In this document: positions 5,373 through 37,761 of the stretch, one piece after another
Position numbering within the stretch: the first letter of the stretch is position 1
How the letters are laid out: every line of letters begins with the position of its first letter
Virus genome (UHGV): UHGV-0848487
Strand: one strand, 5' to 3'
Length of the DNA stretch: 40,883 bases
Source of the DNA: a virus
Notes under the pieces: model-generated
What the model saw: only the letters and a program-made list of their open reading frames with translations
Databases searched by the model: none
What the model was told of the DNA's origin: nothing
Position numbers and translations under genes: made by a program

Positions 5373-5648
5373 GCTAGTCCTTATCATTTAAACATAGAAA
5401 CGGCGTAATCTCAGTAAACCAGTTACTTTTTACACAAGCAATAGAGTATGGCCCTTCCGAACGCGTCAGCGTAACTACACTCAGGACTTACGTCCCGCTC
5501 CGTTACCTGCCCGCGCCGCGGTCGCTTGTTCATACTTCACAAGCTCAGGTGGAGCTTAGCACATTTTTGGTGAAAAGTCAACTATTCGAATAGTTTATTC
5601 CAACATTTACAATTGAGTGGAATGACTGGAATAATCACAGGCACTAAA

Positions 5649-7208: not shown

Positions 7209-7218
7209 ACTATAAGAA

Positions 7219-7234
7219 AGCCCCTTTCGGGGCT
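7219..7234 (-). terminator. hairpin AGCCCC-tttc-GGGGCT between portal and MuF-like genes
   Basis: Same GCCCC-TTTC-GGGGC core as 5649..5666; weak U-tract on minus strand (TTCTT). Confidence 0.35.
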
Positions 7235-7244
7235 ATATGTGAAC

Positions 7245-8738
7245 TTACTGCTGGGTGGGGTCTTTTTGCTGCGCCGACTGCGGAATCTCCCCAGCCACCT
7301 GAGCAACAGCACCTAATGGCAGAGGCGCATCCTCGATAGCGTTCTGAATGTCCTCGTCTGTCCAGTCAGTTACCCCCGCCTTACGCAACGCAGCATAGTA
7401 AGCGGTAGCCGGTAACAGGCCCGCGTTAATATCCGCCATCCACTGCGCGCGGTCCTGAGCGGTCATTGGTTGCAGGAAGAACTCCATGTTCAGTTTGAAC
7501 TCAATTTCAGTGCTGTCGCTAATCCCAAGCATACCCGCGACCCAGCGCAACGCATCGGTATACGCCATGCTTACGTTACGTGCGATTGTTGCCATAACGG
7601 ACGTATCAGCGCCGCGTTGCAGGCGTGCCGATTCCGCGGTGATTTGCTGCGTCGGGGTAATAAGCTGTGCACCAATCTGGATTGCCTGGTTCTCTTTATC
7701 CAACATGTTCTGCTTGGCTAGGTTGTTCTCACCGGCCTGGACCAGAAACGCATTGCCGCCGTAACCGATGTTATGGCCGGAACGTGACCCCATACGCACT
7801 CCGTGAGGGTTGGCTTCTTTCCATTGCCCCATGCTCATGTTCTCACCGGGGGCGATGAACAGAGTAGGCTGGCCTACGACGAAGCTGGACTCCTCATTGT
7901 CCGCGCTGTTGCGGAAGTGCCCGATATTAAGTTCAGCCAACGGCAGCAAAGGTGCATCGTCAGGGGTTGAGTCGTTATTCCCTGCACCAATGAATGTGAA
8001 CGGAATCACCCCGACCGGAATATTACCGAGTTTCGGGAATATTTCGATATAGCCACCTTCCATCAGTGCACCTTTCTGGTTAAAGCGGTACAGACGCTGG
8101 CGATACTGGCCTTCGAAAATATCAAGGACGCGGTATTGCTCGCCGTAGTTGGGGCTGAACTCATCCGCGCCATCGGTGTACTCGTATTCCTCACGCAATA
8201 CAACCATAACCACACGATTAACAGACCCGACGCGCTGGAGACGCCAGTTGATGATATTCTCTGCGGTGTAGAAAGCGATTGTTGGGTTTAGTAAACCCTC
8301 GTTTTGCTCTGCCATGGTAGCTACTTCTACCGCGGGGGCGTCAACCAGCAACCCACCGCGACCAACAGCATCAATCTCATACAGAGTATCCTGTGCGTGC
8401 TGCCACAGGCCAACGCCCGACCCGTCACAGTTAGTGGTCAGGTATTCCATCTGAGACGGAATAATCATCTCGGGGTCTTTGCGCATTACGCTGCCGACCA
8501 TGCCTGAAAGCGTTCGCTTGGTGAAGTTGTAGCAAATTGCCCCTGCTTCGTATTCAGCCTGACGCTGGCGACCGTAAACCGGGTCCGGCTCATTCTTACC
8601 GACGTCACGTAGATACGATGTCAGGTCGCCAGAAAGCGCATGTCGCACCTTCTGCCACTTAGGGAAATACTCTTCGTACTGGCGGTGGTGGGTTTTAACG
8701 TTCTGCCCTTGCCCTGCGTTAATGTTTGCGGAAACCAT
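7245..8738 (-). CDS. portal protein
   Basis: 497 aa ORF immediately downstream of terminase large subunit and upstream of MuF-like gene. Confidence 0.65.
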   Translation of the reverse strand: MVSANINAGQGQNVKTHHRQYEEYFPKWQKVRHALSGDLTSYLRDVGKNEPDPVYGRQRQAEYEAGAICYNFTKRTLSGMVGSVMRKDPEMIIPSQMEYLTTNCDGSGVGLWQHAQDTLYEIDAVGRGGLLVDAPAVEVATMAEQNEGLLNPTIAFYTAENIINWRLQRVGSVNRVVMVVLREEYEYTDGADEFSPNYGEQYRVLDIFEGQYRQRLYRFNQKGALMEGGYIEIFPKLGNIPVGVIPFTFIGAGNNDSTPDDAPLLPLAELNIGHFRNSADNEESSFVVGQPTLFIAPGENMSMGQWKEANPHGVRMGSRSGHNIGYGGNAFLVQAGENNLAKQNMLDKENQAIQIGAQLITPTQQITAESARLQRGADTSVMATIARNVSMAYTDALRWVAGMLGISDSTEIEFKLNMEFFLQPMTAQDRAQWMADINAGLLPATAYYAALRKAGVTDWTDEDIQNAIEDAPLPLGAVAQVAGEIPQSAQQKDPTQQ

Positions 8739-12213: not shown

Positions 12214-12242
12214 AATATAATTGGTGTGAGAGTAATAGTCAA
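12214..12242 (-). promoter_or_regulatory. sigma70-like promoter TTGACT-N17-TATATT (minus strand)
   Basis: Read on minus strand upstream of the 12180 gene block. Confidence 0.4.
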
Positions 12243-12271
12243 CTAGTCATTGCGGAAGATAGATAAAAAAA

Positions 12272-12296
12272 ATCCCGGCTGGGTCAGGGCCGGGAT
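12272..12296 (-). terminator. strong intrinsic terminator
   Basis: ATCCCGGC-9 nt loop-GCCGGGAT followed by 7-8 U on minus strand. Confidence 0.7.
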
Positions 12297-15422: not shown

Positions 15423-15502
15423 TGTTGCATCTCCTGCAATAGTCGCTTCGATTGTTGCGTTTGATGAAAGTGTCGCCTTTTGACGACACTAAGTTAAAGT
15501 TG

Positions 15503-15524
15503 TACGCTGCTGTGTAGCAGCGTA
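15503..15524 (-). terminator. hairpin ACGCTGCT-gtgt-AGCAGCGT downstream of the 15557 gene
   Basis: Perfect 8-bp stem; modest U content after it on minus strand. Confidence 0.35.
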
Positions 15525-15556
15525 AGTCACTCAGTAAAATCCCAAACTATTGAACA

Positions 15557-15757
15557 TCACACTTCTGGCGGCTCGGGTAACGGCATCCAGTGCGTCACGT
15601 ACTTATCGTAGTGATTCCAGAAAGGCTTTCTCCCGTCATCAGGAACTATGTAATAATCGTGCTGAACTGCGTTATTTAACGTTTCATACACCAGGAACTC
15701 TTTATCCGTATACCCATTACCCGGCAGCATCTCACTACACTTAATCCACTCACCCAT
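15557..15757 (-). CDS. DUF551-like protein (66 aa)
   Basis: C-terminal THWMPLPEPP motif; paralog on the plus strand at 20925..21182 ends ITHWMYLPELPEG. Confidence 0.5.
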   Translation of the reverse strand: MGEWIKCSEMLPGNGYTDKEFLVYETLNNAVQHDYYIVPDDGRKPFWNHYDKYVTHWMPLPEPPEV

Positions 15758-15905
15758 ACCTCACACCTCTTTCAATCAAGGATTGCACACCAGCTTTCCA
15801 CGCCCGCCACGCGAGACGCGTCTTAACGTTCAGGTACTCTTTCTTTGAACCCTTGTTAACCGGCAGACCCTCGACCACAGCCCACCGTTCAAATGCTTCT
15901 CTCAT
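15750..15905 (-). CDS. hypothetical protein (51 aa)
   Basis: ATG 15903-15905 overlapping upstream stop (ATGA); under track cutoff. Confidence 0.3.
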   Translation of the reverse strand: MREAFERWAVVEGLPVNKGSKKEYLNVKTRLAWRAWKAGVQSLIERGVRYG

Positions 15906-16090
15906 ACCAGAACCTCACATTCATCCCGATACGCGAACAATAACGACCCTTTGTACTCAATCATAAAACCATAATGGTTGATGCTGAACGCCGGAAAAAC
16001 ATCACCTACCGAGATACCGAAATCTATAAGCCTGCGGTCAGTTATACGGACAAGCCTGCGGTCAGTTATACGGATTCGCATTAACGGCAA
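15902..16090 (-). CDS. hypothetical protein (62 aa) containing a 24-bp in-frame tandem duplication
   Basis: ORF track; peptide RITDRRLV duplicated. Confidence 0.4.
   Translation of the reverse strand: MPLMRIRITDRRLVRITDRRLIDFGISVGDVFPAFSINHYGFMIEYKGSLLFAYRDECEVLV
16028..16075. repeat. 24-bp tandem direct duplication (2 copies, 23/24 identical)
   Basis: aagcctgcggtcagttatacgga repeated head-to-tail. Confidence 0.9.
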
Positions 16091-16284
16091 CCTCCCTCAG
16101 AGTCGTCGGCACAAGCATCACGATTCGATGCCGTTTTGATTGCCTGTAAGCTATTTAGCATTTGCTGGCTATCCATCGTAATAATTGTAATCCCGTCCGA
16201 TAAATGCACCTCGTAGCGTTCAGCTACGAAATATATTTCCTCGAAATCATGATGTTTCAGTTCTTCAAATAATTCTTCCATCAC
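16081..16284 (-). CDS. acidic hypothetical protein (67 aa)
   Basis: ORF track; early leftward operon. Confidence 0.4.
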   Translation of the reverse strand: MMEELFEELKHHDFEEIYFVAERYEVHLSDGITIITMDSQQMLNSLQAIKTASNRDACADDSEGGCR

Positions 16285-16472
16285 TTCGCCCCTTTGAATT
16301 TAAAATTGTTGCCAATGAGTTTTAAGTTCTCCTCTTCTACGTATATTTGTGAATTTACCCCTCTCACCTTTTGCACGGTCACTACGTACTCACCGGGAAA
16401 TAAATTAGATTTTAATTCAATTATGCCGTGTTCACCGTCGGCGCATTTAACCAACTGACCATTCTTAAACAT
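16281..16472 (-). CDS. hypothetical protein, first gene of leftward early operon
   Basis: Preferred ATG 16472 (MFKNGQLVKC) after AGGAG about 10 nt upstream. Confidence 0.4.
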   Translation of the reverse strand: MFKNGQLVKCADGEHGIIELKSNLFPGEYVVTVQKVRGVNSQIYVEEENLKLIGNNFKFKGAK

Positions 16473-16506
16473 AACCCTCACTCCTCTGTCTCGTTCCGAT
16501 AAGTGA

Positions 16507-16535
16507 ATAGTATCCTATTATGTTGGGGCGTGCAA
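16507..16535 (-). promoter_or_regulatory. sigma70-like promoter TTGCAC-N17-TACTAT (minus strand) overlapping GAATAG palindrome
   Basis: Minus strand TTGCACgccccaacataataggaTACTATtcactta, about 25 nt upstream of the 16472 gene. Confidence 0.5.
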
Positions 16536-16594
16536 GAGATTAGTTACGTTGCCGTTGTGATTCTTTCGTTTCTTAAAGGAGTACGCAACGCAGT

Positions 16595-16614
16595 GGGTGG
16601 GCGTTAGCCCACCC
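16595..16614. promoter_or_regulatory. GC-rich 8-bp hairpin GGGTGGGC-gtta-GCCCACCC in early intergenic region
   Basis: Perfect stem, no U-tract on either strand. Confidence 0.3.
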
Positions 16615-16779
16615 CAGCGGAGTGAAGTACTCTCTACCTCACTCACGGCAACTATAGAAACTTTTAATTATCAGTGACTTATGAAGGAGGGTAAAATTTA
16701 AATAGACGGGGGCTTTCTTGCCACTTGCTGTTACTGGGATGAAACTTAGATACTAACGTTACCAAGAGTACTGTTTAGC

Positions 16780-16802
16780 GCCCCGCTTTAGGGCGGGGCT
16801 TT
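16780..16802 (+). terminator. hairpin GCCCCGC-loop-GCGGGGC followed by TTTA
   Basis: Near-identical to the element at 5353..5372 but in opposite orientation. Confidence 0.35.
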
Positions 16803-16956
16803 AAGTACCCGAGACTTAAGAATGATGTTTCTAAGTAATTCTGAATTAAGGTCCTTCGATACATTGATTTTACAGCTACATTTTATTTTGTCAATAGGTT
16901 GTGTTTGGCTATTGTAGGTGTTATAGTTGTTTCACTTGATAAAGAGGGCACGTAAA

Positions 16957-17136
16957 ATGACACAGAAAGAAGTAGCAGACTTAATCGGAGTTTCTCCTAT
17001 GACGCTTAATCGCTGGCTGCGGTCGGGTAAGTTCCCTGAGTGTTGCCGGGTTATTAACGGCTACCGTCAGCCGGGTACGTTTGACCGCGCTACTGTGGAG
17101 GCGTGGATTAAGGAGAACGTAAAAGATGCTAACTAA
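16957..17136 (+). CDS. AlpA-like HTH transcriptional regulator
   Basis: Preferred ATG 16957 after AGAGGG; sequence EVADLIGVSPMTLNRWLRSGKFPE ... TVEAWIKEN matches AlpA/excisionase-like family pattern. Confidence 0.65.
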   Translation: MTQKEVADLIGVSPMTLNRWLRSGKFPECCRVINGYRQPGTFDRATVEAWIKENVKDAN

Positions 17137-17401
17137 ATTCCAGAAACATATATTAATGTGTGCACGCAGACTGACCGAAGCGAACGGCGCTTTTACGGTA
17201 GACGGGCTTCGGAGATACCGGTTGGATAATTACGGTGTAAACCCGATTAAACATGCTTTAGATGTGCTCGAGCGACATGGTGAGATTCTTAATAAAGGAA
17301 AGTTTTATCGGGCAACAAGAGCAACGCCGATTACAGAGAAAGCGAGAAGTATTGGAAAAGTGTTGGTCCCCGAGGGTAATATCTCCCGCGACCTGGAATA
17401 A
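17126..17401 (+). CDS. hypothetical protein (91 aa)
   Basis: ORF track; start overlaps AlpA-like stop. Confidence 0.45.
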   Translation: MLTKFQKHILMCARRLTEANGAFTVDGLRRYRLDNYGVNPIKHALDVLERHGEILNKGKFYRATRATPITEKARSIGKVLVPEGNISRDLE

Positions 17402-17459
17402 AAGAAAGCCCCGACGCGGTGAACGCCGAGGCTAAATTACTTGCTGAAGGAAATACAAC

Positions 17460-19745
17460 ATGTCCGATGTAATTTTATCCTACTCGTGGTCCCGTCGCAA
17501 CGCGCGGGCGGAGAAAAAGGATATAAACGTCAGAACCACACATACGGCAACACTGGATGACCTGAAAGAGTTAATTCAGCCGCTTGATGCTGTTCGTGAC
17601 GGGATTAACCCTAAGACCGCGCCAGGTTATATCACTGCCGCGTGCGATTCTATACACAGCACCGTAAAAGACCCGGAAACAGGTGACTTTAAGCAGGCCC
17701 GTAAAGGCTTCTTTTATCGCTGTGACGCGTCTGTAAGCAAATCGTCGCTGGCGTATCTGGACTTCGACAGCGCAACGCCGGAAGAGTACCAGGAAGCGGT
17801 GCGCCTGGTTAAACGCAGCCGCCTGGCTATGTGCCTCTACACCACGGCATCCCATACCGATGGGTCACCGCGCTTTCGCGTCGTCATGCCGCTGGGCCGC
17901 CCGGTAGAAGGCGGTGACATCATCCGTGTTCGTCATGGATTGCTGGAGCACTTCTTCAAAGGTATGGGTGCGGACCGCAGCGGGTTCACTCTGTCTCAGC
18001 CGATGTACCTGCCGCCGGTTGGCTCTACTGTTATCTGGTCGCGCCGCAACGACCTGATTGACCCGGACGAGTTACTGGAAGGCATCCCCGCCGTTGACGT
18101 TAGCAGCGCATCGGATTACCAGATACCGAAAGAACTGCGAACAGCGTTTACCGATGCGTTTGAAGCACTGGCGTTCGAGTACGGCGGTATTATGACCCCG
18201 CGCGGCCTTAAGATGCCCGCTACGCCGGAACACGCCGAGAACTACAGCGACCCGACACCGCGCCCGGATGACTTCCTGCTGTGCTTCCCGCGCGAGGGAT
18301 ATGAAGCGCCTAACGTAACCATGATTCACGACACCGACATTACGGCGACCGAGGGCATGTCACCGAAAGAGGTGTGGAAGTATGCGTGCGATGCAACCGG
18401 GCTGCCGTTCAGTGAAGTCGCAGAGGCCATCGGTTGGGGTGCACGTGAATCTGTTTCTTGCAGCCTGGACGACCTTGAAGACGACGAGGACTCAGAGGAG
18501 GACGAGTTACCGGAACCGGTAAAGGCTGATTTCGTCGTTGAAGGGTACATGCCGTCGGATTGCATATGGGATATCGTCGGGGAGTCCGGTACGTATAAAT
18601 CCTTCTATACGCTGGGGATGATGTACCTGAGCGCCACCGGATACCGGTTTGCGGGTGCTGACACCCAGCGTTGCCACCATTTCTATATCGACGGTGAAGG
18701 CGGCGCAGCTACCCGCACCCGTATCGATGCGCTCGCGGCTAAATATGGCGAGGAAGGTAAAGATTATGTACATGTTATAGACATGGGTGAAATACTCGGT
18801 ATGCGAGAGGATAAAAAACTTACAGCACTCATCCGTATGATGCGTGAAACAGCAGGAGAGGAACCGATCGGTATGATTGCGTTCGATACCCTCAACCAGA
18901 CGCTGGCCCTGACGATTGATAAGTTTGATGAGAACAGTTCATCAACTGCAATCGGCATGGGTAAAGTCATCGCTATCCTTAAAAAAGCGCGTGACGCGAC
19001 TAAAGCTGCGGTAGGCGTTGTACACCATACACCGAAGGGCGGAAAGAAAGCCCGAGGTAGTGGTGCGCTGTACGCTGGCGTCGATGTGGAGCTGACAATC
19101 GAACGCGCGACAGACCGTCAGATAAATGTATACCACTCTAAATTTAAGCATGGGCCGCAACAGAAGACGGTTGGTATGGTGCTTGAGTCGGTACAGTTCC
19201 GCGAAGCCCCGCCACCGAAAGAATACCGCGCGGTTGAGTTCCTCGGTAGCACAGAGGAATACGGCACAACCGTTAACCTCGACCTGCCTGAGCCGCACAA
19301 AGCGCTTGTGCTTATGCCGTGGGGCTTCGAACCGTTCAAGACCGACGAGGAGAAAGAGCGGGAAGAAGGACTGACTAAGGAAGGTAAAGAAAACGTACGT
19401 AGGACCATGGAGAACGCCGTCAACAGTTCGGAAGCCACGATACTGGCGGCGTTTGAACTGGCGGAAGGAACCTACAACGGCAACGAAGGTATCACGGTAG
19501 CCGCGGCAAATAAGCTCGCACAGTCTGACCCCAACGCGAAGGCGTTCAACTCCAAAGAAGTCATAGAACGCGGAAAGATTAAGAAAATGGTTGAGGCGGG
19601 GTATCTTGTACCTGGTACGGACGAAAACAATCAGATAATCCCGGGCCGTTACAGATTGAATACCCGAATAACGGACAACAAGATTCCGAAGACAATATAC
19701 GAACCGAATGAAATGCTGACAGTGACAGAGGAGGATTTGGAATAG
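17460..19745 (+). CDS. replication protein: primase-like N-terminal region fused to RecA-like/AAA ATPase (helicase-type) domain
   Basis: 761 aa; LAYLDFD acidic motif in N-terminal half; deviant Walker A GESGTYKS, Walker B-like IGMIAFDTLNQ, HHTPKGG motif in C-terminal half. Confidence 0.55.
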   Translation: MSDVILSYSWSRRNARAEKKDINVRTTHTATLDDLKELIQPLDAVRDGINPKTAPGYITAACDSIHSTVKDPETGDFKQARKGFFYRCDASVSKSSLAYLDFDSATPEEYQEAVRLVKRSRLAMCLYTTASHTDGSPRFRVVMPLGRPVEGGDIIRVRHGLLEHFFKGMGADRSGFTLSQPMYLPPVGSTVIWSRRNDLIDPDELLEGIPAVDVSSASDYQIPKELRTAFTDAFEALAFEYGGIMTPRGLKMPATPEHAENYSDPTPRPDDFLLCFPREGYEAPNVTMIHDTDITATEGMSPKEVWKYACDATGLPFSEVAEAIGWGARESVSCSLDDLEDDEDSEEDELPEPVKADFVVEGYMPSDCIWDIVGESGTYKSFYTLGMMYLSATGYRFAGADTQRCHHFYIDGEGGAATRTRIDALAAKYGEEGKDYVHVIDMGEILGMREDKKLTALIRMMRETAGEEPIGMIAFDTLNQTLALTIDKFDENSSSTAIGMGKVIAILKKARDATKAAVGVVHHTPKGGKKARGSGALYAGVDVELTIERATDRQINVYHSKFKHGPQQKTVGMVLESVQFREAPPPKEYRAVEFLGSTEEYGTTVNLDLPEPHKALVLMPWGFEPFKTDEEKEREEGLTKEGKENVRRTMENAVNSSEATILAAFELAEGTYNGNEGITVAAANKLAQSDPNAKAFNSKEVIERGKIKKMVEAGYLVPGTDENNQIIPGRYRLNTRITDNKIPKTIYEPNEMLTVTEEDLE

Positions 19746-19754
19746 GTAAAAATA

Positions 19755-19773
19755 AAGGGGCGTTAAGCCCCTT
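19755..19773 (-). terminator. hairpin AAGGGGC-gttaa-GCCCCTT, U-tract on minus strand
   Basis: Stop codon of the XRE-like gene lies in the loop; located 10 nt after the replication gene stop on the plus strand. Confidence 0.5.
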
Positions 19774-19978
19774 CACCCAACGCCAGCCACTTGGCATCTA
19801 CTTGCAGCACTTCCGCCAGTTTAAACAGCGTCGCTGGGCGGACGTCCTGAGTTACCCCAAGTGCCAGCTGGTTAATCGCGCCTTGGGAAACACCGGCCAG
19901 GACAGCCAGATGGCGCTGGGAGATACCGAGTTCTTTACGGCGTTGCTCTACACGGATACCTAGTTCAGATGGTTGCAT
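19763..19978 (-). CDS. XRE-family (Cro/CI-type) HTH transcriptional regulator
   Basis: 71 aa; LGISQRHLAVLAGVSQGAINQL helix-turn-helix; AAGGAG RBS; antisense to the replication module. Confidence 0.8.
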   Translation of the reverse strand: MQPSELGIRVEQRRKELGISQRHLAVLAGVSQGAINQLALGVTQDVRPATLFKLAEVLQVDAKWLALGEGA

Positions 19979-19998
19979 GTCAATTACTCCTTAGTCAG

Positions 19999-20027
19999 TT
20001 GATATGTGAATAGTACCATATTAATTA
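19999..20027 (+). promoter_or_regulatory. candidate promoter TTGATA-N17-TAATTA overlapping the divergent XRE promoter (-10 TACTAT on minus strand at 20010..20015)
   Basis: Contains GTGAATAGTA operator-like motif; face-to-face overlapping promoters. Confidence 0.4.
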
Positions 20028-20042
20028 TTTTAGAAAAGCCCA

Positions 20043-20071
20043 TTGACAAGTGAATAGTTCGCTATTATAGT
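20043..20071 (+). promoter_or_regulatory. strong sigma70-like promoter TTGACA-N17-TATAGT
   Basis: Consensus -35, 17-nt spacer containing GTGAATAGTtcgCTATTA palindrome, -10 TATAGT; 30 nt upstream of the 20103 gene. Confidence 0.6.
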
Positions 20072-20102
20072 TAGCCCATACCAAACGAGAGGAGAATAAA
20101 TA

Positions 20103-20612
20103 ATGTTAGAGAAATTCTTAGTATTACTGGAACGTTTCGTAGTTGCGCATGAACTGATTGCTGCGAACAGCGCGAAACGACCGATGCCGTCAACTGAGTG
20201 TGTAGGTGAAATGCTTGTAGATGTATCGGTTACCGGAGAGGTGCTTGGAGTCGACCCAGGCACTGGCGTCGGGAAAGAAATCCCGGTCGAAGGCGAGGGC
20301 CTCGTTGACACTAAACCTGCGGAAGAAGAGAAGCCGAAACGCAAGCCGCGTAAAGCTAAAGTAGAGGAGCCAACGCCAGAGCCGGAAGAAGAGAAAGAAG
20401 AAGTCGATTACCAGTCTCTGCGCGACCAGATTCAGGCTATCGACGATGCGATTAACGAAGGCCCAAGCGATGCCGCGTGCGACGATTCTGACGAACTGCT
20501 GGAAGAGTTTACCGGTAAGAAGATGAAGATTGCAGCGATTAAAGACGAAGACCTGGCTGAGTATCTGGAGCGCCTGACAGCAATCAAGAACAAGTATTTC
20601 GAAGAAGAATAA
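20103..20612 (+). CDS. highly acidic hypothetical protein
   Basis: 169 aa, Glu/Asp-rich with short basic patch KPKRKPRKAK; GAGGAG RBS; first gene after strong promoter. Confidence 0.55.
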   Translation: MLEKFLVLLERFVVAHELIAANSAKRPMPSTECVGEMLVDVSVTGEVLGVDPGTGVGKEIPVEGEGLVDTKPAEEEKPKRKPRKAKVEEPTPEPEEEKEEVDYQSLRDQIQAIDDAINEGPSDAACDDSDELLEEFTGKKMKIAAIKDEDLAEYLERLTAIKNKYFEEE

Positions 20613-20619
20613 CTATCCC

Positions 20620-20638
20620 GCGGCCTTCGGGCCGCTTT
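20620..20638 (+). terminator. hairpin GCGGCC-ttcg-GGCCGC followed by TTT
   Basis: Directly after acidic protein gene. Confidence 0.45.
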
Positions 20639-20655
20639 AACTGAGGGTCGGGATT

Positions 20656-20928
20656 ATGATTTACCAACTATACCGCGCCGTTGACCGGCGGGATACCACA
20701 GAGGCGCTATGGTTATTGCGTGCGCCGTCCGGTGCGCACCAGATGGAAGAGATGGCGTACTTAGGCAAAGTACCGCTGTCTAAAGATATAGGCCGTCACG
20801 TGTCGCAGATTAAGCGCACGACATTCGCCAAGCCTGACTTTTATGTCTTTGAGTCGATGTACAGCTGGGCTATGCACTGCGACCATAAGACACGACATTT
20901 AATTGACCAGTGGGAGAGCAGGGTATGA
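20656..20928 (+). CDS. hypothetical protein (90 aa)
   Basis: ORF track; RBS GAGGG. Confidence 0.45.
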   Translation: MIYQLYRAVDRRDTTEALWLLRAPSGAHQMEEMAYLGKVPLSKDIGRHVSQIKRTTFAKPDFYVFESMYSWAMHCDHKTRHLIDQWESRV

Positions 20929-21182
20929 ATTGGGTTAGTGTAAACGAAGCATTGCCGGAGTCAAAAGATGATTCTGTTTTAGTTTGCTCAGTAGATGGTG
21001 GTAAATATGACGATAACGGGTTCCCGGAAGGTGGGATCGATTTTGTACATATACAGGACTATTTCGACGACATTACGGCTGGGCTGGATGAGAACGGAAA
21101 TCAGCTATATACGAAACGGTATATCGAGATGGGCATAACTCACTGGATGTATTTACCGGAACTGCCGGAGGGCACTAAATGA
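20925..21182 (+). CDS. DUF551-like protein
   Basis: Preferred ATG 20925 (MNWVSV) overlapping upstream stop; C-terminal ITHWMYLPELPEG. Confidence 0.5.
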   Translation: MNWVSVNEALPESKDDSVLVCSVDGGKYDDNGFPEGGIDFVHIQDYFDDITAGLDENGNQLYTKRYIEMGITHWMYLPELPEGTK

Positions 21183-22432
21183 TGATCCTAAAAGAGCGCG
21201 GCGGCAATAACGATGTACACGCCTTACTATCACCGTCAGGCGCTAAAAAGTGGCTAACCTGCCCGGCTTCTCTGGCCTGTGAAAAAGATATTCCTAACAC
21301 GTCCGGTAAAGCCGCGGTATTAGGCACAGCTATGCACACCATAGCCGAGATGCATCTTAACCAGTACATCAAAGGTGCTGCGCTGCCGTTAGAGCGTGAA
21401 GTCGGCGCTTACGTGCTGGATGAAGGTAAAGGCCAGATTAAGGCGCTAATCAGCCCAATGAAAGGCGCGGTACTGGTTACGGCGGACATGATTGAGCAGG
21501 TGCGCAAGTACACCGACTACTGCAAAGCGATTATCGACGTAGCGACTTACGACAAGCTGGAAATGCGAGTCAATCTTACTGAGGTATTGCATCCTGGGTA
21601 TGAAGGTGTCGAGACGTTCGGAACGGCTGACCTCGTTGCTGTCCAGGAACTGGCGAACACCGACGAGCACATGCTCATTATTGGCGACCTTAAAACTGGA
21701 CGGCATCGTGTTGAAGCGAAAGAAAACAAGCAGCTTATGCTTTACGCTCTCGGTGTTTATCGCCGACTCAAGAGACGTTATAACATCACAGTAGTGCGCC
21801 TGGTCATCTTCCAGCCGTACGCGGGGGGTGCGTCAGAGTGGGACATCTCGGTCGAAGGTCTGGAACTGTTCGCTAAGTTCGCACAGAAACGGGCACTGTT
21901 AGCGCTTGATGCTTATTTCCGTGGAAAGAAGAACCTGAAAGCGTCGGACTTTAAACCGTCGGTCGATGGTTGCCAGTGGTGCCGGTTCTCTGAACAGTGT
22001 GCCGCGCGTACAAAGACGGTTAATTCTGTACTGGCGGAAGAACTTGAAGACGACTTTGTGCTGGAACTGACGACGGAGCAACTCGTAGTTGAGTATGAGA
22101 AGTTGCCGCTGTTACGCCAGCACATCGACAAGGTTGAGAAAGCGATGTCCGCCGCATTGCATTCCGGTAAGAAAGTTCCTGGGTACAAGCTGGTTGAAGG
22201 TAAGATGGGCAACCGTGCGTGGAAAGATGCCGATGCGATTGAAGTGTCACACGGCGACATTCTCAAAAAAGAGGTATTGATGACCCCTACGGAGGCAGCA
22301 AAAGTTCTTTCGGCGGATGAGATGGCAGCGCTTGAGCCGTTTATTACCCGTAAGCCGGGCGCACCATGTGTCGCAACGGCAGACGACAAACGTCCTGAGT
22401 GGAATCAGGTTAGTGAAGAAGATTTGGAATAA
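21179..22432 (+). CDS. PD-(D/E)XK exonuclease, Cas4/RecB-like with Cys cluster
   Basis: GTADLVAV ... IIGDLKTG nuclease motifs; C-terminal CQWCRFSEQC; 417 aa. Confidence 0.6.
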   Translation: MMILKERGGNNDVHALLSPSGAKKWLTCPASLACEKDIPNTSGKAAVLGTAMHTIAEMHLNQYIKGAALPLEREVGAYVLDEGKGQIKALISPMKGAVLVTADMIEQVRKYTDYCKAIIDVATYDKLEMRVNLTEVLHPGYEGVETFGTADLVAVQELANTDEHMLIIGDLKTGRHRVEAKENKQLMLYALGVYRRLKRRYNITVVRLVIFQPYAGGASEWDISVEGLELFAKFAQKRALLALDAYFRGKKNLKASDFKPSVDGCQWCRFSEQCAARTKTVNSVLAEELEDDFVLELTTEQLVVEYEKLPLLRQHIDKVEKAMSAALHSGKKVPGYKLVEGKMGNRAWKDADAIEVSHGDILKKEVLMTPTEAAKVLSADEMAALEPFITRKPGAPCVATADDKRPEWNQVSEEDLE

Positions 22433-22436
22433 AGTG

Positions 22437-22465
22437 TTGACACCTGAATAGTTAGCTATTATAGT
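22437..22465 (+). promoter_or_regulatory. sigma70-like promoter TTGACA-N17-TATAGT
   Basis: Near-duplicate of promoter at 20043..20071 including TGAATAGTtagCTATTA palindrome. Confidence 0.6.
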
Positions 22466-22518
22466 TCTAATCACTGGCCGGGCAGTTCCCGGAGTAAACT
22501 GAAAAGCGAGAAATCACG

Positions 22519-23145
22519 ATGGGTATTAAACTGAATCTGCGTAAAGTAAACACTGCATGGGTTAACGTATTCGAACGCGAAAAAGACCGTGAAAACGATG
22601 ATGGCTCAATCACTAAAGGCCAGTACAGCGCGACTATCATCCTGCCGTCTGACCACGCACAAATCGACGCGCTCTACGACACCGTTTACGCTGTGGTTGA
22701 AGAAGCGTTGGGCGCAGCTGCCGCTGAGAAGTGGATGAAGTCCAACTACGGCGAAGGTAAGCACATGGATAAATGTGCGATTAAAGACATTGCCGAGCGC
22801 GACAATCCGTTTGAAGACTTCCCGGAAGGCTTCTACTTCAAGGCGAAGGCACAGAAACAGCCACTGATTGTAACCTCTAAAAAAGGCGAGACTCAGGTAG
22901 AACAGGACTTCAATGTAGACGGCGAACAGATTGAAGGTGAACAGGTTTACAGCGGCTGCGTCGCTAACGTAAGCGTTGAAATCTGGTTCAGTCAGAAATA
23001 TAAAGTCCTCGGCGTTAACCTGCTGGCGATTAAATACATTGGCGAAGGCAAAGCGTTTGGCGGTTCTAAAGTCGCTGCCAGCGTAAATGACCTGGAAGAC
23101 GACGAAGAAGATGAAGCACCGCGCCGCGAGCGTCGTCGTCGCTAA
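22519..23145 (+). CDS. ssDNA-binding protein-like (T7 gp2.5-type, putative)
   Basis: 208 aa with acidic C-terminal tail DLEDDEEDEA; position immediately upstream of DNA polymerase. Confidence 0.4.
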   Translation: MGIKLNLRKVNTAWVNVFEREKDRENDDGSITKGQYSATIILPSDHAQIDALYDTVYAVVEEALGAAAAEKWMKSNYGEGKHMDKCAIKDIAERDNPFEDFPEGFYFKAKAQKQPLIVTSKKGETQVEQDFNVDGEQIEGEQVYSGCVANVSVEIWFSQKYKVLGVNLLAIKYIGEGKAFGGSKVAASVNDLEDDEEDEAPRRERRRR

Positions 23146-23164
23146 TATCTGAATCAATTTAACT

Positions 23165-23187
23165 AAGGCCCTTCATTGGGCCTTTTT
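23165..23187 (+). terminator. hairpin AAGGCCC-ttcatt-GGGCCTT followed by TTT
   Basis: Between SSB-like gene and polymerase. Confidence 0.45.
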
Positions 23188-23204
23188 ACTAAGGGTCAAA
23201 AATA

Positions 23205-25385
23205 ATGAGTTACCTGTTCTTAGACTTTGAAACATTCTCCGAAGCCGATTTGAAGAAAGTCGGCTCCTACGCTTACGCCGAACATCCAACCACCGAAGTT
23301 CTAATCTGCACATATGCTTTTGACGACGAGCCTGTGCAGGTATGGGATTGCACCAACGGCAGCGACATACCGGGCGATTTGCACCGCGCGTTACGCCGTC
23401 TGGTGAAACCAAACAGCCGTATTAAGATGGTGTGGCACAACGGCTCAATGTTCGACAGGCCCATCATGAAGCACTGCTGGGGTTTTGATATTCCCGTAAG
23501 CAACACCATTGATACGATGATTTGGGCGTTTCGTCACGCGCTGCCGGGTTCACTCGACGCATTGTGCGAAGTGCTTGGCGTGTCTGCAGACAACGCGAAA
23601 GACAAACGAGGCAAAGCGCTTATTCAGCGTTTCTCTAAACCGACGCCGAAGAACTACAAAATTCGCCGCTACACTGCTGAAACGCACCCGGATGAGTGGG
23701 CGCTGTTCATCAAGTACGCCGTTAGCGACATCACCGCGATGCGTGAAGTGTTCCATAAGTTGCCGCGTTGGGGTAACTCCGAGTTCGAAGACCGTGTACT
23801 GGAACTGGACCAGTTAATTAACGACCGCGGGTTTAAGGTCGACGTTGCGCTGGCGGAAGCCGCAATTGAAGCTGTGGAGAAACACAAGGCACAGTTACAG
23901 GAAGAAGCCCAACGTAAATACGGCGGCTCGCTTACAGGTAAGGACTTCCTGCCGATTCTGCGTGAACTGGCGCCTGCGCATCGCATCCACAACGCGCAGA
24001 AGTCTACGCTTAACGACCTGCTTGCTGACGATGATTTACCGGACGACGCCCGCACGATTATAGAAATGCGCCTCGGGGCGGCATCCACTGCGTCAACGAA
24101 ATATAACCCGCTGCTGTTAGGCCGCTCGTCTGACGACCGCCGTCGCGGTTGCATCCAGTATGGTGGAGCTAAACGTACGTTACGATTTGCGGGTAAAGGC
24201 TTCCAGCCGCAGAACCTGGCGCGTGGGTACTATCACGATGATGAACTGGATAAAGGTATTTCAGCATTACTTAAGGGCCGAGCACATCGCCGTTTTGATG
24301 TAGCCAAGCTAACGGCATCTACGGTTCGCAGCTGCATTATCCCGGAAGCCGGACATAAGTTTGTCGTCGCCGACTACTCGAACGTTGAAGGCCGCGGTTT
24401 GGCGTGGCTGGCTGGCGAAGAAACCGCGCTTGATACGTTCCGTGCCGGGCTGGATATTTACTGCGTAACCGCAGGCAAGATGTTCGGCATGGAGCCGGAT
24501 TACATTAAGAAAGAACGTAAAGACTTACGCCAGATTGGTAAGGCATGCGAACTTGGACTTGGCTACGCGGGTGGTGTCGGCGCATTCGTACAGTTCGCCA
24601 AGAACCTCAGCCTTGACCTTGTTGATATGGCAAAAACAATGGACGGGACTTTCCCCGACCACATCTGGGCTGCTACCGCACGTGGATATGAGTGGGCGCG
24701 TATTCAGGAAGCCAAGCGACCACCACGTCCAGGTGAAAATGATGACCGACCATCTTATATTCTTGATAAGAAAGTGTGGCGTACCTGCGACGCTATCAAG
24801 CGTATGTGGCGTGAGTCACACCCGGAAACAGTAGCTTTCTGGCGGGATATTGAAGACGCAGCTATGGCAGCTATCCGCAATCCGGGCAAAGAGTTCACCG
24901 CAGGGCCGCGGGGAGTTAAGTTTTCGCGCAACGTAGAAACGGACAACAACGGCAACAAAGTCGCCGGTTGGTGGTTGCGGATGACGTTGCCGTCGGGCCG
25001 CGTTATGTCTTATCCGGGCGTCGGGTTGAGCGTGTCGAAAGAGACAGACGAAGATGGAAAGGTGTCCACTAACGTCCGCATCAAATACCAGGGGGAGAAC
25101 CAGTTAACCCGTCAGTGGGGCTTCCAGTACACCTACTCTGGTAAACTGGTGGAAAACTGCACTCAGGCTCTGTGCCGTGATTTGCTGGCTAATGCGCTGC
25201 TGAACGTAGAGGCAAACGGCTACCCGATTGTTCTTCACGTACACGATGAGATTATCTGCGAGACACCAGATTTACCGGAATACAATGTAGATGAACTGGA
25301 GAAATTAATGTGTGCGTTGCCTGAGTGGGCAGAAGGCTTCCCTCTTGTAGCAGAAGGTGCGGAGATGAAGCGTTATGCCAAGTAA
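23205..25385 (+). CDS. DNA polymerase, family A with 3'-5' exonuclease domain
   Basis: Exo I motif LFLDFETFS; motif A ADYSNVEGR; motif B RQIGKACELGLGYAGG; motif C HVHDEII. Confidence 0.85.
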   Translation: MSYLFLDFETFSEADLKKVGSYAYAEHPTTEVLICTYAFDDEPVQVWDCTNGSDIPGDLHRALRRLVKPNSRIKMVWHNGSMFDRPIMKHCWGFDIPVSNTIDTMIWAFRHALPGSLDALCEVLGVSADNAKDKRGKALIQRFSKPTPKNYKIRRYTAETHPDEWALFIKYAVSDITAMREVFHKLPRWGNSEFEDRVLELDQLINDRGFKVDVALAEAAIEAVEKHKAQLQEEAQRKYGGSLTGKDFLPILRELAPAHRIHNAQKSTLNDLLADDDLPDDARTIIEMRLGAASTASTKYNPLLLGRSSDDRRRGCIQYGGAKRTLRFAGKGFQPQNLARGYYHDDELDKGISALLKGRAHRRFDVAKLTASTVRSCIIPEAGHKFVVADYSNVEGRGLAWLAGEETALDTFRAGLDIYCVTAGKMFGMEPDYIKKERKDLRQIGKACELGLGYAGGVGAFVQFAKNLSLDLVDMAKTMDGTFPDHIWAATARGYEWARIQEAKRPPRPGENDDRPSYILDKKVWRTCDAIKRMWRESHPETVAFWRDIEDAAMAAIRNPGKEFTAGPRGVKFSRNVETDNNGNKVAGWWLRMTLPSGRVMSYPGVGLSVSKETDEDGKVSTNVRIKYQGENQLTRQWGFQYTYSGKLVENCTQALCRDLLANALLNVEANGYPIVLHVHDEIICETPDLPEYNVDELEKLMCALPEWAEGFPLVAEGAEMKRYAK

Positions 25386-25506
25386 ACTGATTATCGCGGT
25401 ACTGGCTGGATTCGCCGCCGGTGTTTACTGTCATGAGGGTCAGTACGGCATGATGGTTGCCGTATTGGGTATATTCATCGCAATTTATCTGTGGGTGCTG
25501 GAATGA
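25375..25506 (+). CDS. small membrane peptide (43 aa), hypothetical
   Basis: ATG overlapping polymerase 3' end; two hydrophobic segments; under track cutoff. Confidence 0.3.
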   Translation: MPSKLIIAVLAGFAAGVYCHEGQYGMMVAVLGIFIAIYLWVLE

Positions 25507-25598
25507 AAATTTACTGGTTATATGAAGAAGACTGTCGAATCTGCCCTCGCTGCGGTATCGCGCATACGAAACGGGAGGGGTGTATAGATGAGTACGCC
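25503..25598 (+). CDS. small Cys-rich peptide (31 aa), hypothetical
   Basis: ATGA overlap; CRICPRCG ... C motif. Confidence 0.25.
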
Positions 25599-25875
25599 TG
25601 AGGGGCGCGTGCAGAAATACGCAAAAGAGCGATTCGAGGCCCTGGGAGGCCTCGTACGCAAATTGTCGTACGAAAATAGAGCGGGCGCCCCCGACCTGCT
25701 GGTAATTCTCCCTGGTGGCATCATCTGGTTCGTCGAGGTTAAGAAAGACGAAAACACGAAGCCGGACCCGCACCAGTTACGAGAGCACGAGCGGATGCGT
25801 AAACGTGGTGCAAATGTTTTTGTCGTTGGTTCGTTTAAACAGGTTGACGACCTAATAGCGGGCTATTATAGTTAA
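25588..25875 (+). CDS. VRR-NUC domain nuclease
   Basis: GAPDLLVILPGGIIWFVEVKKDENTKPDPHQ matches VRR-NUC PD-(D/E)XK core; RBS GGGAGGGG. Confidence 0.7.
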   Translation: MSTPEGRVQKYAKERFEALGGLVRKLSYENRAGAPDLLVILPGGIIWFVEVKKDENTKPDPHQLREHERMRKRGANVFVVGSFKQVDDLIAGYYS

Positions 25876-25905
25876 TCACACACCAACAATATAAGGAATT
25901 GAGAA

Positions 25906-26100
25906 ATGAGACACGAATATGACCGCAAACCAGCACGTGACATCGTACCGGGTGACATGATTTTCAACGTTAAGACACGTCAACCTGTTGCCGTTGATAC
26001 GGTGTTCGTCGAGTCGAACGGTAAACTGGTTATCGAAGATGTAACGGGTAACGTTACGGCGTTCGGGCGTAAAGAGCTGGTACTCTACATTAAGGGTTGA
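25906..26100 (+). CDS. hypothetical protein (64 aa)
   Basis: ORF track; RBS AAGGAA. Confidence 0.45.
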   Translation: MRHEYDRKPARDIVPGDMIFNVKTRQPVAVDTVFVESNGKLVIEDVTGNVTAFGRKELVLYIKG

Positions 26101-26102
26101 TT

Positions 26103-27527
26103 ATGTCTAAATTTATCCGTCGAGAGTACCAAAAGCTCATGACTTCATTCATGCTGCGGCATCCGCGCTGTAATATTTGGGCTTCGATGGGCGCGGGCAA
26201 AAGTTCCGCAACGATGTGGGTGCTTAACCGACTGTTCCGCAACGGCCAACTTAATGATGATGACCGCGTGTTAATCCTCGCCCCTTTACGTGTTGCGTCC
26301 GGTACGTGGCCATCAGAACAAACTAAGTGGGGATTCCCGTGTCTGCGCGTCGTAGATGCGACCGGTTCAGAGAAGCGCCGCATCGCGGCGCTGGAGTCAG
26401 ATGCTAACGTGGTGTGCACTAACTACGAAGTTATCGAATGGCTGATTGACTACTACGGCAAAGACGACTGGCCTTTTACCGTTATCGTCGCCGACGAAAG
26501 CACGAAGCTGAAATCATTCCGCAGCCGTTCAGGTGGAAGCAAGAGGGCGAAGGCGCTAAGTAAAGTTGCGTTCGGTAAGGTTAAGCGTTTCATTAACCTG
26601 ACTGGTACGCCGTCGCCGAACGGCCTCAAGGACTTATGGGGCCAGAACTGGTTTATCGACGCGGGTGAGCGCCTCGGTTCTTCATACACAGCATTCACCG
26701 ACCGCTGGTTTAACTCGGTACAGAAAGGCAAGTCAGCTATGGCGCGTGAGTACCATGCGCGCCCGGGCGCAGATAACGAGATTCACCAGAAGATGAAAGA
26801 CATTAGTCTCACGATTGACGCCGCCGAGTGGTTTGGATGTGAAGCGCCGATTATTGTACCAGTGGAAATTGACCTGCCGAAGAAAGCACGTCAGGCGTAC
26901 ATCGATATGGAGGAAAAGTTATTCGCGGAACTGGAGAGCGGGGAAGTTGAAGCGGCTAACGCCGCGGCGAAGACCTCAAAATGCTTGCAGCTTGCATCTG
27001 GTGCCGTATATGTGACGGGCGAAGACGGGGAAGCAACGAAAGACTGGGAGAAAGTGCACGACACGAAACTGGATGCGCTGGAGTCAATTGTTGAGGAGCT
27101 ACAAGGTGCGCCGTTGCTTGTGGCTTATCAGTTTAAGCATGAACTGGAGCGCATCCTTAAGCGATTCCCGCAGGCGCAGGCGTTCGCCAAAGGTGCGAAG
27201 GGTAATAAGCAGATGGAAGCGTGGAACCGTGGCGAAATCGAAATCTTATGCGTGCACCCGGCGTCAGCCGGGCATGGTTTGAATTTACAGGACGGCGGGC
27301 ATCATCTGGCGTTTATTTCGCAAGGCTGGAATCTTGAGCACTATTTGCAGGTTGTCGAGCGTATAGGCCCGGTCCGCCAGAAACAGGCTGGCCACGAGCG
27401 CCCGGTGTTCCTTTATCACATAGTCGCTAAAGACACTCTTGACGAGGTTGTTGCCGCGCGTACAGACGAGAAGAAATCGGTCCAGGAAGAATTGCTTAAT
27501 TATATGAAGAGAAGAGGTAAGAAATGA
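26103..27527 (+). CDS. SNF2-family DNA helicase
   Basis: GAGKS Walker A, VIVADESTKLK motif II, NLTGTPSPNGLKDLW motif III; preferred ATG 26103. Confidence 0.7.
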   Translation: MSKFIRREYQKLMTSFMLRHPRCNIWASMGAGKSSATMWVLNRLFRNGQLNDDDRVLILAPLRVASGTWPSEQTKWGFPCLRVVDATGSEKRRIAALESDANVVCTNYEVIEWLIDYYGKDDWPFTVIVADESTKLKSFRSRSGGSKRAKALSKVAFGKVKRFINLTGTPSPNGLKDLWGQNWFIDAGERLGSSYTAFTDRWFNSVQKGKSAMAREYHARPGADNEIHQKMKDISLTIDAAEWFGCEAPIIVPVEIDLPKKARQAYIDMEEKLFAELESGEVEAANAAAKTSKCLQLASGAVYVTGEDGEATKDWEKVHDTKLDALESIVEELQGAPLLVAYQFKHELERILKRFPQAQAFAKGAKGNKQMEAWNRGEIEILCVHPASAGHGLNLQDGGHHLAFISQGWNLEHYLQVVERIGPVRQKQAGHERPVFLYHIVAKDTLDEVVAARTDEKKSVQEELLNYMKRRGKK

Positions 27528-37732: not shown

Positions 37733-37761
37733 TTGCACACCCCAATATAATAGGGTACTAT
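37733..37761 (+). promoter_or_regulatory. sigma70-like promoter TTGCAC-N17-TACTAT driving plus-strand accessory island
   Basis: TTGCACaccccaatataatagggTACTATtcactta; near-identical to the minus-strand early promoters at 15213..15241 and 16507..16535. Confidence 0.55.

Follow-up and report, generated by a model that had tools for sequence, protein, structure and literature searches.

The region considered here is a non-coding stretch of 475 bp, termed the hub, at positions 16482-16956 of the viral genome UHGV-0848487, the whole analysed sequence of which, 40.9 kb in length, is referred to as the window. Several described systems provide a background to it. In phage lambda, the leader hairpins of the pL/nutL/N-leader region serve for antitermination (boxB) and as an RNase III site. 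The early/repressor region of phage Mu contains divergent promoters and operator sites with a central bend, produced by integration host factor (IHF), which is thought to let the ends communicate. The origins of the lactococcal Ceduovirus (c2-type) phages, as summarised in the published account, are non-coding, lie between divergent gene blocks and are bounded by the first two early promoters of the same direction (PMC7150918). According to the same account, the first promoter yields a non-coding transcript, PE1-T, of defined length and fold, which has been implicated in initiation; no ribosome-binding site (RBS) or open reading frame (ORF) follows that promoter, and the origins fall into several mutually dissimilar sequence types (PMC7150918).

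Judged by its sequence, the window is a near-complete Kagunavirus genome of the subfamily Guernseyvirinae, that of a K1-type E. coli phage, and it is considered essentially whole because its 40.9 kb compares with 40.8-45 kb for such genomes. Over 879 bases spanning the hub, the best match is Escherichia phage K1H, at 96.6% identity (97.1% for the 475-bp region alone), followed by K1G and K1ind2 at 93-94%. We propose that the hub is the central early transcription-control region of this Kagunavirus and that it carries a structured untranslated leader, a reading to which we give about an even chance. Its motifs exist and are non-random, and both their positions and the pairing of the hairpins are conserved across the Guernseyvirinae. 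The literature on this subfamily yielded no account of the region beyond a PHIRE motif, considered below.

Homologous intergenic regions were collected from 50 sources, comprising IMG/VR contigs, found via the helix-turn-helix (HTH) protein, and annotated phage records. They show a mosaic of conservation in which the first ~85 nt, holding the leftward promoter P_L and its upstream block, are the most widespread (175 phage records, Salmonella Jerseyviruses among them). The next ~115 nt are common to a subgroup and the right 270 nt are common only to K1H, K1G, K1ind2, K1ind3, LM02P1 and EC3-1. There are six sequence variants, yet the hub measures 458-495 nt in 36 of 38 Guernseyvirinae regions. 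In every variant the elements occur in the same order: P_L, a G+C-rich hairpin (~115-145 nt from the left end), a conserved ACGGCA island, an IHF core, AATAGA, the island AGATACTAA (16748..16756, plus strand), short and conserved amid variable sequence, a second hairpin (~180 nt before the ATG), an A/T-rich stretch, a leftward TTGACA-type promoter and the rightward promoter P_R. At the sequence level, the layout of the hub is kept across the subfamily while the sequence itself turns over. The two regions of exceptional length, L026 (1100-1736) and L035 (1867-2500), each have ~150 nt of additional sequence inserted after P_R and before the HTH gene, in which a small ORF is encoded.

Three promoters of the sigma-70 type are predicted in the hub, each with hexamers near TTGACA/TATAAT, a spacing of 16-18 nt and the correct orientation upstream of a gene. 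The distal leftward promoter, P_L1 (16867..16894, minus strand), which did not figure in an earlier sequence-only reading of the stretch, combines a -35 hexamer TTGACA (16894-16889) with a -10 hexamer TAAAAT (16872-16867) over a spacer of 16 nt. It agrees with the consensus at 11 of 12 positions; only three promoter matches in the genome reach this level, P_L1 being the sole leftward one, and it is the best leftward sigma-70 match in the genome. The corresponding element, TTGAC(A/T) or TTGAAA, N16-18, TAnnnT, is present exactly once at this place in 48 of 48 related regions. P_L1 is also the only conserved promoter reading the hub interior, in the leftward direction and with a predicted transcription start near 16860.

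P_R (16899..16927, plus strand) has a -35 hexamer TTGTGT (16899-16904), a spacer of 17 nt and a -10 hexamer TATAGT (16922-16927), and it would initiate near 16934. It matches the consensus at 8 of 12 positions and is identified by positional conservation: its -10 hexamer and downstream leader line up with TATACT in every other variant, where the promoter reads TTGnTT-N17-TATACT and occupies -58 to -30 relative to the ATG. The sequence-only reading had placed the rightward promoter at TTGTCA-N16-TATTGT. These hexamers are present (16888-16915, plus strand, 9/12 match) but they occur in this variant only, while the conserved promoter lies at 16899-16927; the earlier call was probably misplaced, although the pair could possibly serve as a second rightward promoter confined to this variant. 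The conserved TGTCAATAGG of the other variants is, on the opposite strand, the leftward -35 hexamer of P_L1. P_L1 and P_R stand back to back, with their -35 hexamers 5 nt apart, within an A/T-rich stretch (16800..16940, both strands) of 30-37% GC, compared with ~51% for the genome. A published time course of phage K1B4 (OQ696342.1) by RNA sequencing (PMC12645636) gives values at gene level only.

The proximal leftward promoter, P_L (16507..16535, minus strand; -35 TTGCAC at 16535-16530, N17, -10 TACTAT at 16512-16507), scores low against the consensus, at 7/12, and a generic promoter scan did not flag it. It is recognised by its repetition and its conservation. TTGCAC-N17-TACTAT has exactly three matches in the window, against 0.14 expected, the others lying at 15241->15213 (minus strand) and 37733-37761 (plus strand); the three copies align across ~40 nt and each is followed within ~25 nt by an RBS and a start codon. 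Moreover, P_L lies inside the ~85-nt block described above, and the leftward early promoter that the sequence-only reading had located here is borne out on both counts. Transcription from P_L is predicted to start near 16500.

Between P_L1 and P_L the hub contains two domains with the potential to fold. Domain II (16766..16810, minus strand) is the extended form of hairpin 2, the core of which, GCCCCGC/GCGGGGC (16780-16799), is a perfect 7-bp GC stem. Its basal helix on the minus strand, GGGUACU/AGUACUC, includes one fixed G.U pair that becomes A.C on the plus strand. An A/T-rich hairpin, ACTTAAGAA...TTCTAAGT (16814..16836, both strands), lies beside it. Among eight close relatives, none of the 24 pairs predicted for domain II and the adjacent A/T hairpin varies, and all ten variable columns are unpaired (P=4e-4). 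When 24 distinct V5-type and Jerseyvirus sequences are compared, the homologous domain II exhibits five apical stem types, namely CCGCC/GGCGG, CCGCTT/AAGCGG, CGCTTAA/TTAAGCG, TGTTTAACCC/GGGTTAAACA and GCG-TTCCGC/GCGGAA-CGC, the last with T-A to G-C exchanges. Compensation is also seen in the basal helices (GTAAAC/GTTTAC, GTAAT/ATTAC, GTAAG/CTTAC, GTGAG/CTCAC), and one change is a paired insertion, from GTTCA/TGAAC to GTTTCA/TGAAAC. Since the apical stems could not be aligned, RNAalifold yielded spurious long-range pairs on MAFFT alignments across variants, and within-type alignments and per-type tables were used instead.

In the Jerseyviruses, domain II forms a 40-bp rod on the minus strand in which 99.1% of the cells are paired, a share that drops to 22-53% if the partners are displaced by 1-3 columns, figures to be read with the proviso that the rod was derived from the very sequences scored and that most pairs never vary. 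Canonical cells number 436 of 440 on the minus strand and 413 of 440 on the plus strand; the gap is due to two G.U pairs, fixed or nearly so, and to three positions that vary, which would turn into A.C when read on the plus strand. RNase III typically cleaves rods of this sort, ~40 bp long and interrupted by internal loops. We favour a leftward RNA because the G.U pattern of domain II fits the minus strand, in agreement with the direction of P_L1, and we therefore lean towards the leftward strand as the folded one. The 1x1 mismatches (nine A.C versus four G.T) were weakly informative about the strand, as were comparisons of z-scores. That the region is structured at all is supported by its folding energy, with z-scores of -3.7 and -4.2.

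This pattern bears directly on a proposal of the sequence-only reading, that a short RNA ends at a terminator-like hairpin at 16780-16802. In explicit form, a regulatory RNA of ~100 nt would start on the plus strand after TTATCA-N18-TAAAAT (16668-16697), a 9/12 promoter match, and end at this hairpin, where the stem can be extended on the plus strand via G.U pairs and TTT follows; in some relatives, T-runs occur 6 nt past the equivalent hairpin. We consider such an RNA very improbable. The promoter, the sole plus-strand match upstream, is absent from other variants and its -35 hexamer coincides with the IHF core, while the domain II wobbles, fixed and variable, read as G.U only on the minus strand, the plus strand giving A.C instead. 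As regards termination, an intrinsic terminator was defined as a G+C-rich hairpin with at least five T in the 8 nt directly after the stem. The G+C-rich stem of hairpin 2 is real enough, but it is followed by TTT only, and with the tails TTTAAGTA and GCTAAACA no U-tract of this kind was found and the terminator scan was negative, on either strand. Nor does any Rfam family support a known RNA: a permissive scan of 15500-18000 against Rfam 15 gave chance-level matches only, the best (E=0.28) lying well below the gathering score.

Hairpin 1 (16595..16614, both strands), GGGTGGGC gtta GCCCACCC, is the perfect GC-rich hairpin of the sequence-only reading, with an 8-bp stem and a 4-nt loop. Dinucleotide shuffling of the surrounding 90 nt gave a stem of this length in 10 of 2000 cases, and for the three types tested such a stem arose in 0.35-1% of shuffles. 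In relatives the same position is occupied by four unrelated stems, GGGTGGGC/GCCCACCC, GGGCAGGC/GCCTGCCC, TGGTGCC/GGCACCA and CTTGCC/GGCAAG, the first three recognised via a hairpin table and the last via the Jersey-type regions L051 and L058. Within types, differences fall in the loop or are compensated (C-G to T-A; GGC..GCC to GGT..ACC). Hairpin 1 and a helix at 16620-16644 are enclosed by the inverted repeat GTTGCCGT (16548-55) and ACGGCAAC (16645-52), together forming domain I (16548..16652, both strands). TGCCGT...ACGGCA is retained in the variants examined. The closing helix is further supported because in one Jerseyvirus type (L051, L056-58) TTGCC/GGCAA itself forms a tetraloop hairpin with a GTAA cap. 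For the window's own type, 19 of 24 variable columns of domain I are unpaired on the minus strand (P=2.5e-5). Hairpin 1, with the tails CAGCGGAG and ACTGCGTT, also lacks a U-tract, and the terminator scan was negative on both strands; in phage fBC-Eco01 its equivalent is annotated as a minus-strand terminator, yet is followed only by TTTAGTT. Given that the stems change sequence wholly yet stay paired across the 50 related regions, both hairpins are, on comparative sequence grounds, real conserved structures.

A possible pairing of an anti-Shine-Dalgarno sequence (16615-25) with the Shine-Dalgarno sequence (16478-88), which could mask the first RBS in long transcripts, was discarded as it is not conserved in other variants. 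In the V4-type relatives (L011, L014, L016, L020, L025 and L038), a (GAGT)n microsatellite of variable copy number and CGAAA repeats lie between hairpin 1 and the IHF site, in place of the sequence that the window carries there.

Inverted repeats might instead act in the DNA, either as a cruciform or hairpin or as paired protein sites (TGCCGT/ACGGCA, AGTTAC/GTAACT, AATAG) looped by IHF; the HTH_17 gene product is one possible binder, and the arrangement would then resemble a classical operator array or a protein-dependent origin. The closing-stem motifs, being invariant, could equally be binding sites, AGTTAC occurs 21 times across variants against 2.6 expected, AATAG half-sites are densest in the hub, the IHF site is central and the fold z-scores are negative on both strands. 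However, the replacement of apical stems by unrelated pairing sequences is expected of a structure, unlike a sequence-specific site, and, in a cruciform, the internal G.U pairs of one strand would leave A.C mismatches in the opposite arm. Moreover, the window's variant has AGTTAC once and GTTAC/GTAAC three times, and is barely enriched. We regard action in the DNA as improbable.

Between the two domains lies a predicted IHF site, which the earlier reading had not included. WATCARNNNNTTR is the established core consensus for IHF, and the hub carries a match, TATCAGTGACTTA (16669..16681, plus strand), preceded on its 5' side by an A/T-rich tract, AAACTTTTAAT. At the same position the core is exact in 37 of the 50 related regions and has one mismatch in the other 13, whereas the unspecified N/W/R positions vary freely between regions; flanking phage DNA gives a background of 0.023 matches per 480 nt and strand. 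About 20 nt to the right stands AATAGAC (16701..16707, plus strand), a conserved half-site of the palindrome treated below. In this variant only, a strong Shine-Dalgarno-like sequence, AAGGAGGG (16684-16691, plus strand), occurs without a usable start codon downstream; on a leftward RNA it would read as the anti-Shine-Dalgarno-like CCCUCCUU.

These conserved features also bear on the simplest explanation, that only the outward promoters P_L and P_R function and that a fast-evolving spacer lies between them, with hairpins that are either incidental or no more than generic insulators. Variability is indeed highest in the middle of the region, of which there are six variants, and no known RNA family was matched. 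Against this, the length stays within 458-495 nt, the hairpins reappear at set places and their stems show compensation, variants that otherwise defy alignment retain both the IHF core and P_L1, and substitutions avoid paired columns. A plain spacer is hardly to be credited.

The -10 hexamer of P_L is overlapped by a palindrome, AATAGTATCCTATT (16506..16519, both strands), conforming to the pattern AATAGnnnnCTATT. Allowing up to one mismatch, this pattern occurs at ten sites in the genome, against 0.9 expected, at positions 5573, 7201, 12234, 15212, 16506, 20009, 20053, 22447, 25854 and 37749. It also fills the spacer of three strong rightward promoters, TTGACA-N17-TATAGT (20043 and 22437; 11/12) and TTGACG-N17-TATAGT (25844; 10/12). 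Two promoter classes can be discerned, TTGCAC-N17-TACTAT with the palindrome on the -10 hexamer and TTGACA-N17-TATAGT with the palindrome within the spacer, so that the palindrome overlaps ordinary -35/-10 hexamers in two distinct registers. This placement over host-type hexamers suggests that host-type promoters here contain an operator to which a phage regulator binds, and the palindrome is probably the operator of a single such regulator. In the Kagunavirus fBC-Eco01 a PHIRE 'phage promoter' motif, tgAATAGTa-ccTATTat-T, has been reported and ascribed to a phage-encoded RNA polymerase (PMC9825357). That motif and the present palindrome are one and the same, at homologous positions (2523-2542 in L007, corresponding to 16504-16523 of the window). 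Where that paper sees the motif of a phage RNA polymerase, the host-type hexamers beneath it here would fit an operator; no phage RNA polymerase was seen among the annotated genes inspected, no search having been aimed at such an enzyme.

The regulator is probably the small HTH_3 protein of the phage. Its gene (Cro/CI-type, 71 amino acids, 19763-19978, minus strand) has two palindrome-bearing promoters directly upstream, one leftward (site 20009) and one rightward (20043-20071, 11/12 match), and the locus at 19763-20071 looks like a putative autoregulated divergent switch. A homologue in phage EC3-1 carries a repressor annotation. Genome-wide, AATAG/CTATT half-sites are densest in the hub, with five against 0.63 expected, and the second-densest window lies upstream of the HTH_3 gene, which is the likely source of the palindrome-binding protein.

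A rightward promoter within the palindrome block (TCGATA-N17-TATGTT, class-2-like) was considered and rejected, being weak here and lost in Jersey variants that retain P_L. Elsewhere, two one-mismatch palindrome sites on the minus strand (7195-7245 and 12234-12290) adjoin leftward terminator-like sequences consisting of a hairpin plus T-run, for example GCCCCGAAAGGGGCTTTCTTAT at ~7215-7236. This juxtaposition suggests terminator-promoter junctions within the long left operon.

Taken in order, the elements can be assembled into a scheme for the early phase of infection. Host RNA polymerase would fire from the sigma-70-type promoters P_R, P_L1 and P_L. P_R would drive the rightward replication operon, comprising the HTH_17 gene, a gene for a 91-amino-acid protein and an AAA_25 primase-helicase gene. 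P_L1 would transcribe ~360 nt of untranslated sequence leftward, running into P_L, and this leader would fold into domain II (with hairpin 2) and domain I (with hairpin 1), flanking the IHF site. The weaker P_L would come next, with its -10 hexamer inside a palindromic operator common to nine other genome sites. By binding, IHF may bend the DNA that separates the left and right ends of the hub. The hairpin domains, which do not appear to be canonical terminators, may act in the leftward RNA as cis elements of a long early transcript, either as processing or stability sites or as attenuators insulating P_L, and the palindrome would serve as a repressor site for temporal shut-off.

Several observations weigh against this scheme or parts of it. 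All promoter calls are consensus matches, and in most relatives the -10 hexamer of P_L1 is no better than a weak TAAGnT. IHF has a short consensus whose matches are not enriched window-wide (five against 2.2 expected), because of which the case for the site rests on its positional conservation. Within well-aligned groups most pairs are invariant and covariation is thin, with one pair showing double changes, and the shuffle control was only modestly exceeded for the Jerseyvirus rod (8/500). The strand is not cleanly assigned either, since the fold z-scores are negative on both strands, at about -4. Domain I folds more stably on the plus strand, and in its sub-helix at 16620-16644 the changes are C/T opposite G, which fits plus-strand pairing or no constraint. 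Finally, the same leftward transcript can be invoked for replication, with a difference only in the role that it plays.

According to this last view, the non-coding unit from P_L1 to P_L would be an origin of replication that transcription activates or primes. Once folded, the P_L1 transcript would form an R-loop or primer in A/T-rich, IHF-bent DNA where the primase-helicase loads. It would thereby act much as PE1-T is believed to do in the c2-type phages, and would resemble the origins of T7, T4 and ColE1. We consider an origin of this kind unlikely, though a serious contender. Its layout matches that of the published Ceduovirus origins. The hub has two leftward promoters ~360 nt apart, conserved length and folds, an A/T-rich segment and an IHF site. 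In addition, the hub lies directly upstream of the replication operon, and no dedicated initiator protein is recognisable beside the primase-helicase. An A/T-rich segment suitable for unwinding was found at 16800-16940, in the same place as the promoters. On the other hand, the region 16482-16956 contains no tandem repeats or iterons, only weak two-copy direct repeats, and there is no DnaA box (TTATNCACA, up to one mismatch) in 16400-17000. The P4-type iteron GTTCACC was also tried and is not enriched, with seven copies against 5.4 expected.

GC skew had been suggested as a check, and its cumulative minimum does fall inside the hub, but the skew flips at all four gene-orientation switches (those at 16.5, 27.5 and 38 kb among them). 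It is uninformative on the origin because it tracks gene orientation and transcription genome-wide. The hub variants are, moreover, uncoupled from the primase-helicase alleles: the 95-98% allele is found together with domain II of three different kinds, and a single type of domain I (hairpin 1) accompanies both 96% and 65% alleles. The search with the primase-helicase did not return the V4 phages, which may carry a different replication gene. Natural left/right chimeras of the hub exist (V2), whereas chimeric c2 origins are reported to be non-functional (PMC7150918). The literature searched contained no replication data, origin or transcript map for any Guernseyvirinae phage. On present evidence, the hub is the most plausible candidate for the origin of this subfamily. 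That it is a transcript-dependent origin, in which the leftward untranslated RNA and an IHF bend would open or prime the DNA for loading of the primase-helicase, nevertheless appears rather doubtful.

As an early control region, the hub is well placed in the genome. The gap at 16482-16956 is real and gene-free. Leftward genes span from 16472 down to ~500 and rightward genes from 16957 to 27527, and those adjoining the hub on the left encode small proteins of no assigned function and a DUF551 protein. The left edge of the hub (16470..16495, minus strand) carries the RBS GAGGAGTGAGGG and the ATG (16472-16470) of the first leftward gene. At the right edge (16944..16959, plus strand) stand the RBS GAGGG and the ATG (16957) of the HTH_17 gene (16957-17133), which encodes a DNA-binding protein of 59 amino acids and is followed by the genes for the 91-amino-acid protein, for which no family match was found, and for the primase-helicase of 761 amino acids with its AAA_25 domain. 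The description of the hub as non-coding and set between divergent early operons is sustained, since the flanking genes diverge and the outward promoters are present and conserved. Likewise, no RBS-bearing ORF is common to the sequence variants on either strand, in keeping with the earlier failure to see a convincing ORF, and the idea of a small ORF in the hub was dropped. ARAGORN detected no tRNA or tmRNA in the hub. All the sequence features named by the sequence-only reading lie where it had placed them.

Three further observations concern the genome at large. A perfect tandem duplication of 24 bp x2 (16028-16074), ~400 nt to the left of the hub inside the leftward ORF 15902-16090, encodes a repeated RITDRRL peptide. 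A second perfect tandem duplication in the window, of 36 bp x2, lies at 3385-3455. GATC is depleted ~12-fold genome-wide, with 11 sites against 131 expected from dinucleotide shuffles and none inside the hub, which suggests avoidance of GATC-targeting restriction or of Dam-dependent processes.

Kagunaviruses and Jerseyviruses have been widely isolated for phage therapy and food biocontrol. The analysis maps their control region in testable form and places on it three promoters, a palindromic operator of ~10 sites, a host IHF site and two RNA domains conserved in structure. It offers handles for engineering, such as safe sites for cargo insertion and which promoter fires first, and it points to a putative dependence on a host factor, IHF. 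The putative operator would revise the published reading of the repeated motif as a promoter for a phage RNA polymerase. If the hub did prove to be an origin, the c2-type principle of a promoter plus a structured non-coding transcript would extend from lactococcal phages to the Guernseyvirinae, which are virulent siphophages of enterobacteria.

Among known systems, the c2-type origins, as described in their published account, share with the hub divergent gene blocks, two early promoters of the same direction, the absence of an RBS or ORF, and several sequence types with conserved length and fold. They differ in that origin activity was demonstrated there by plasmid replication whereas the hub is known from sequence alone, and in that the hub has a Gram-negative host, a phage-encoded primase-helicase, an IHF site and natural chimeras; a resemblance of the two in sequence is not to be expected. 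Rho-independent terminators resemble the hub hairpins in being short, G+C-rich and perfect, but the latter lack a U-tract. With the lambda pL region the hub shares a strong early leftward promoter, a long untranslated stem-loop leader before the first gene and IHF sites nearby. It differs in having a second promoter, P_L, between leader and first gene, and this phage is virulent and lacks a CI/Cro switch at the hub; boxA or boxB motifs, for which no search was made, were not seen in the hub and no N-like gene was identified. In the Mu early region, as in the hub, operator sites and an IHF bend lie between divergent promoters, although the Mu region is shorter and has no structured non-coding transcript, and occupancy and IHF effects were demonstrated in Mu while for the hub they are inferred. 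Overall, the hub belongs to a known kind of element, the phage early control region, of which it is a well-organised example, and its architecture is unusually well conserved.

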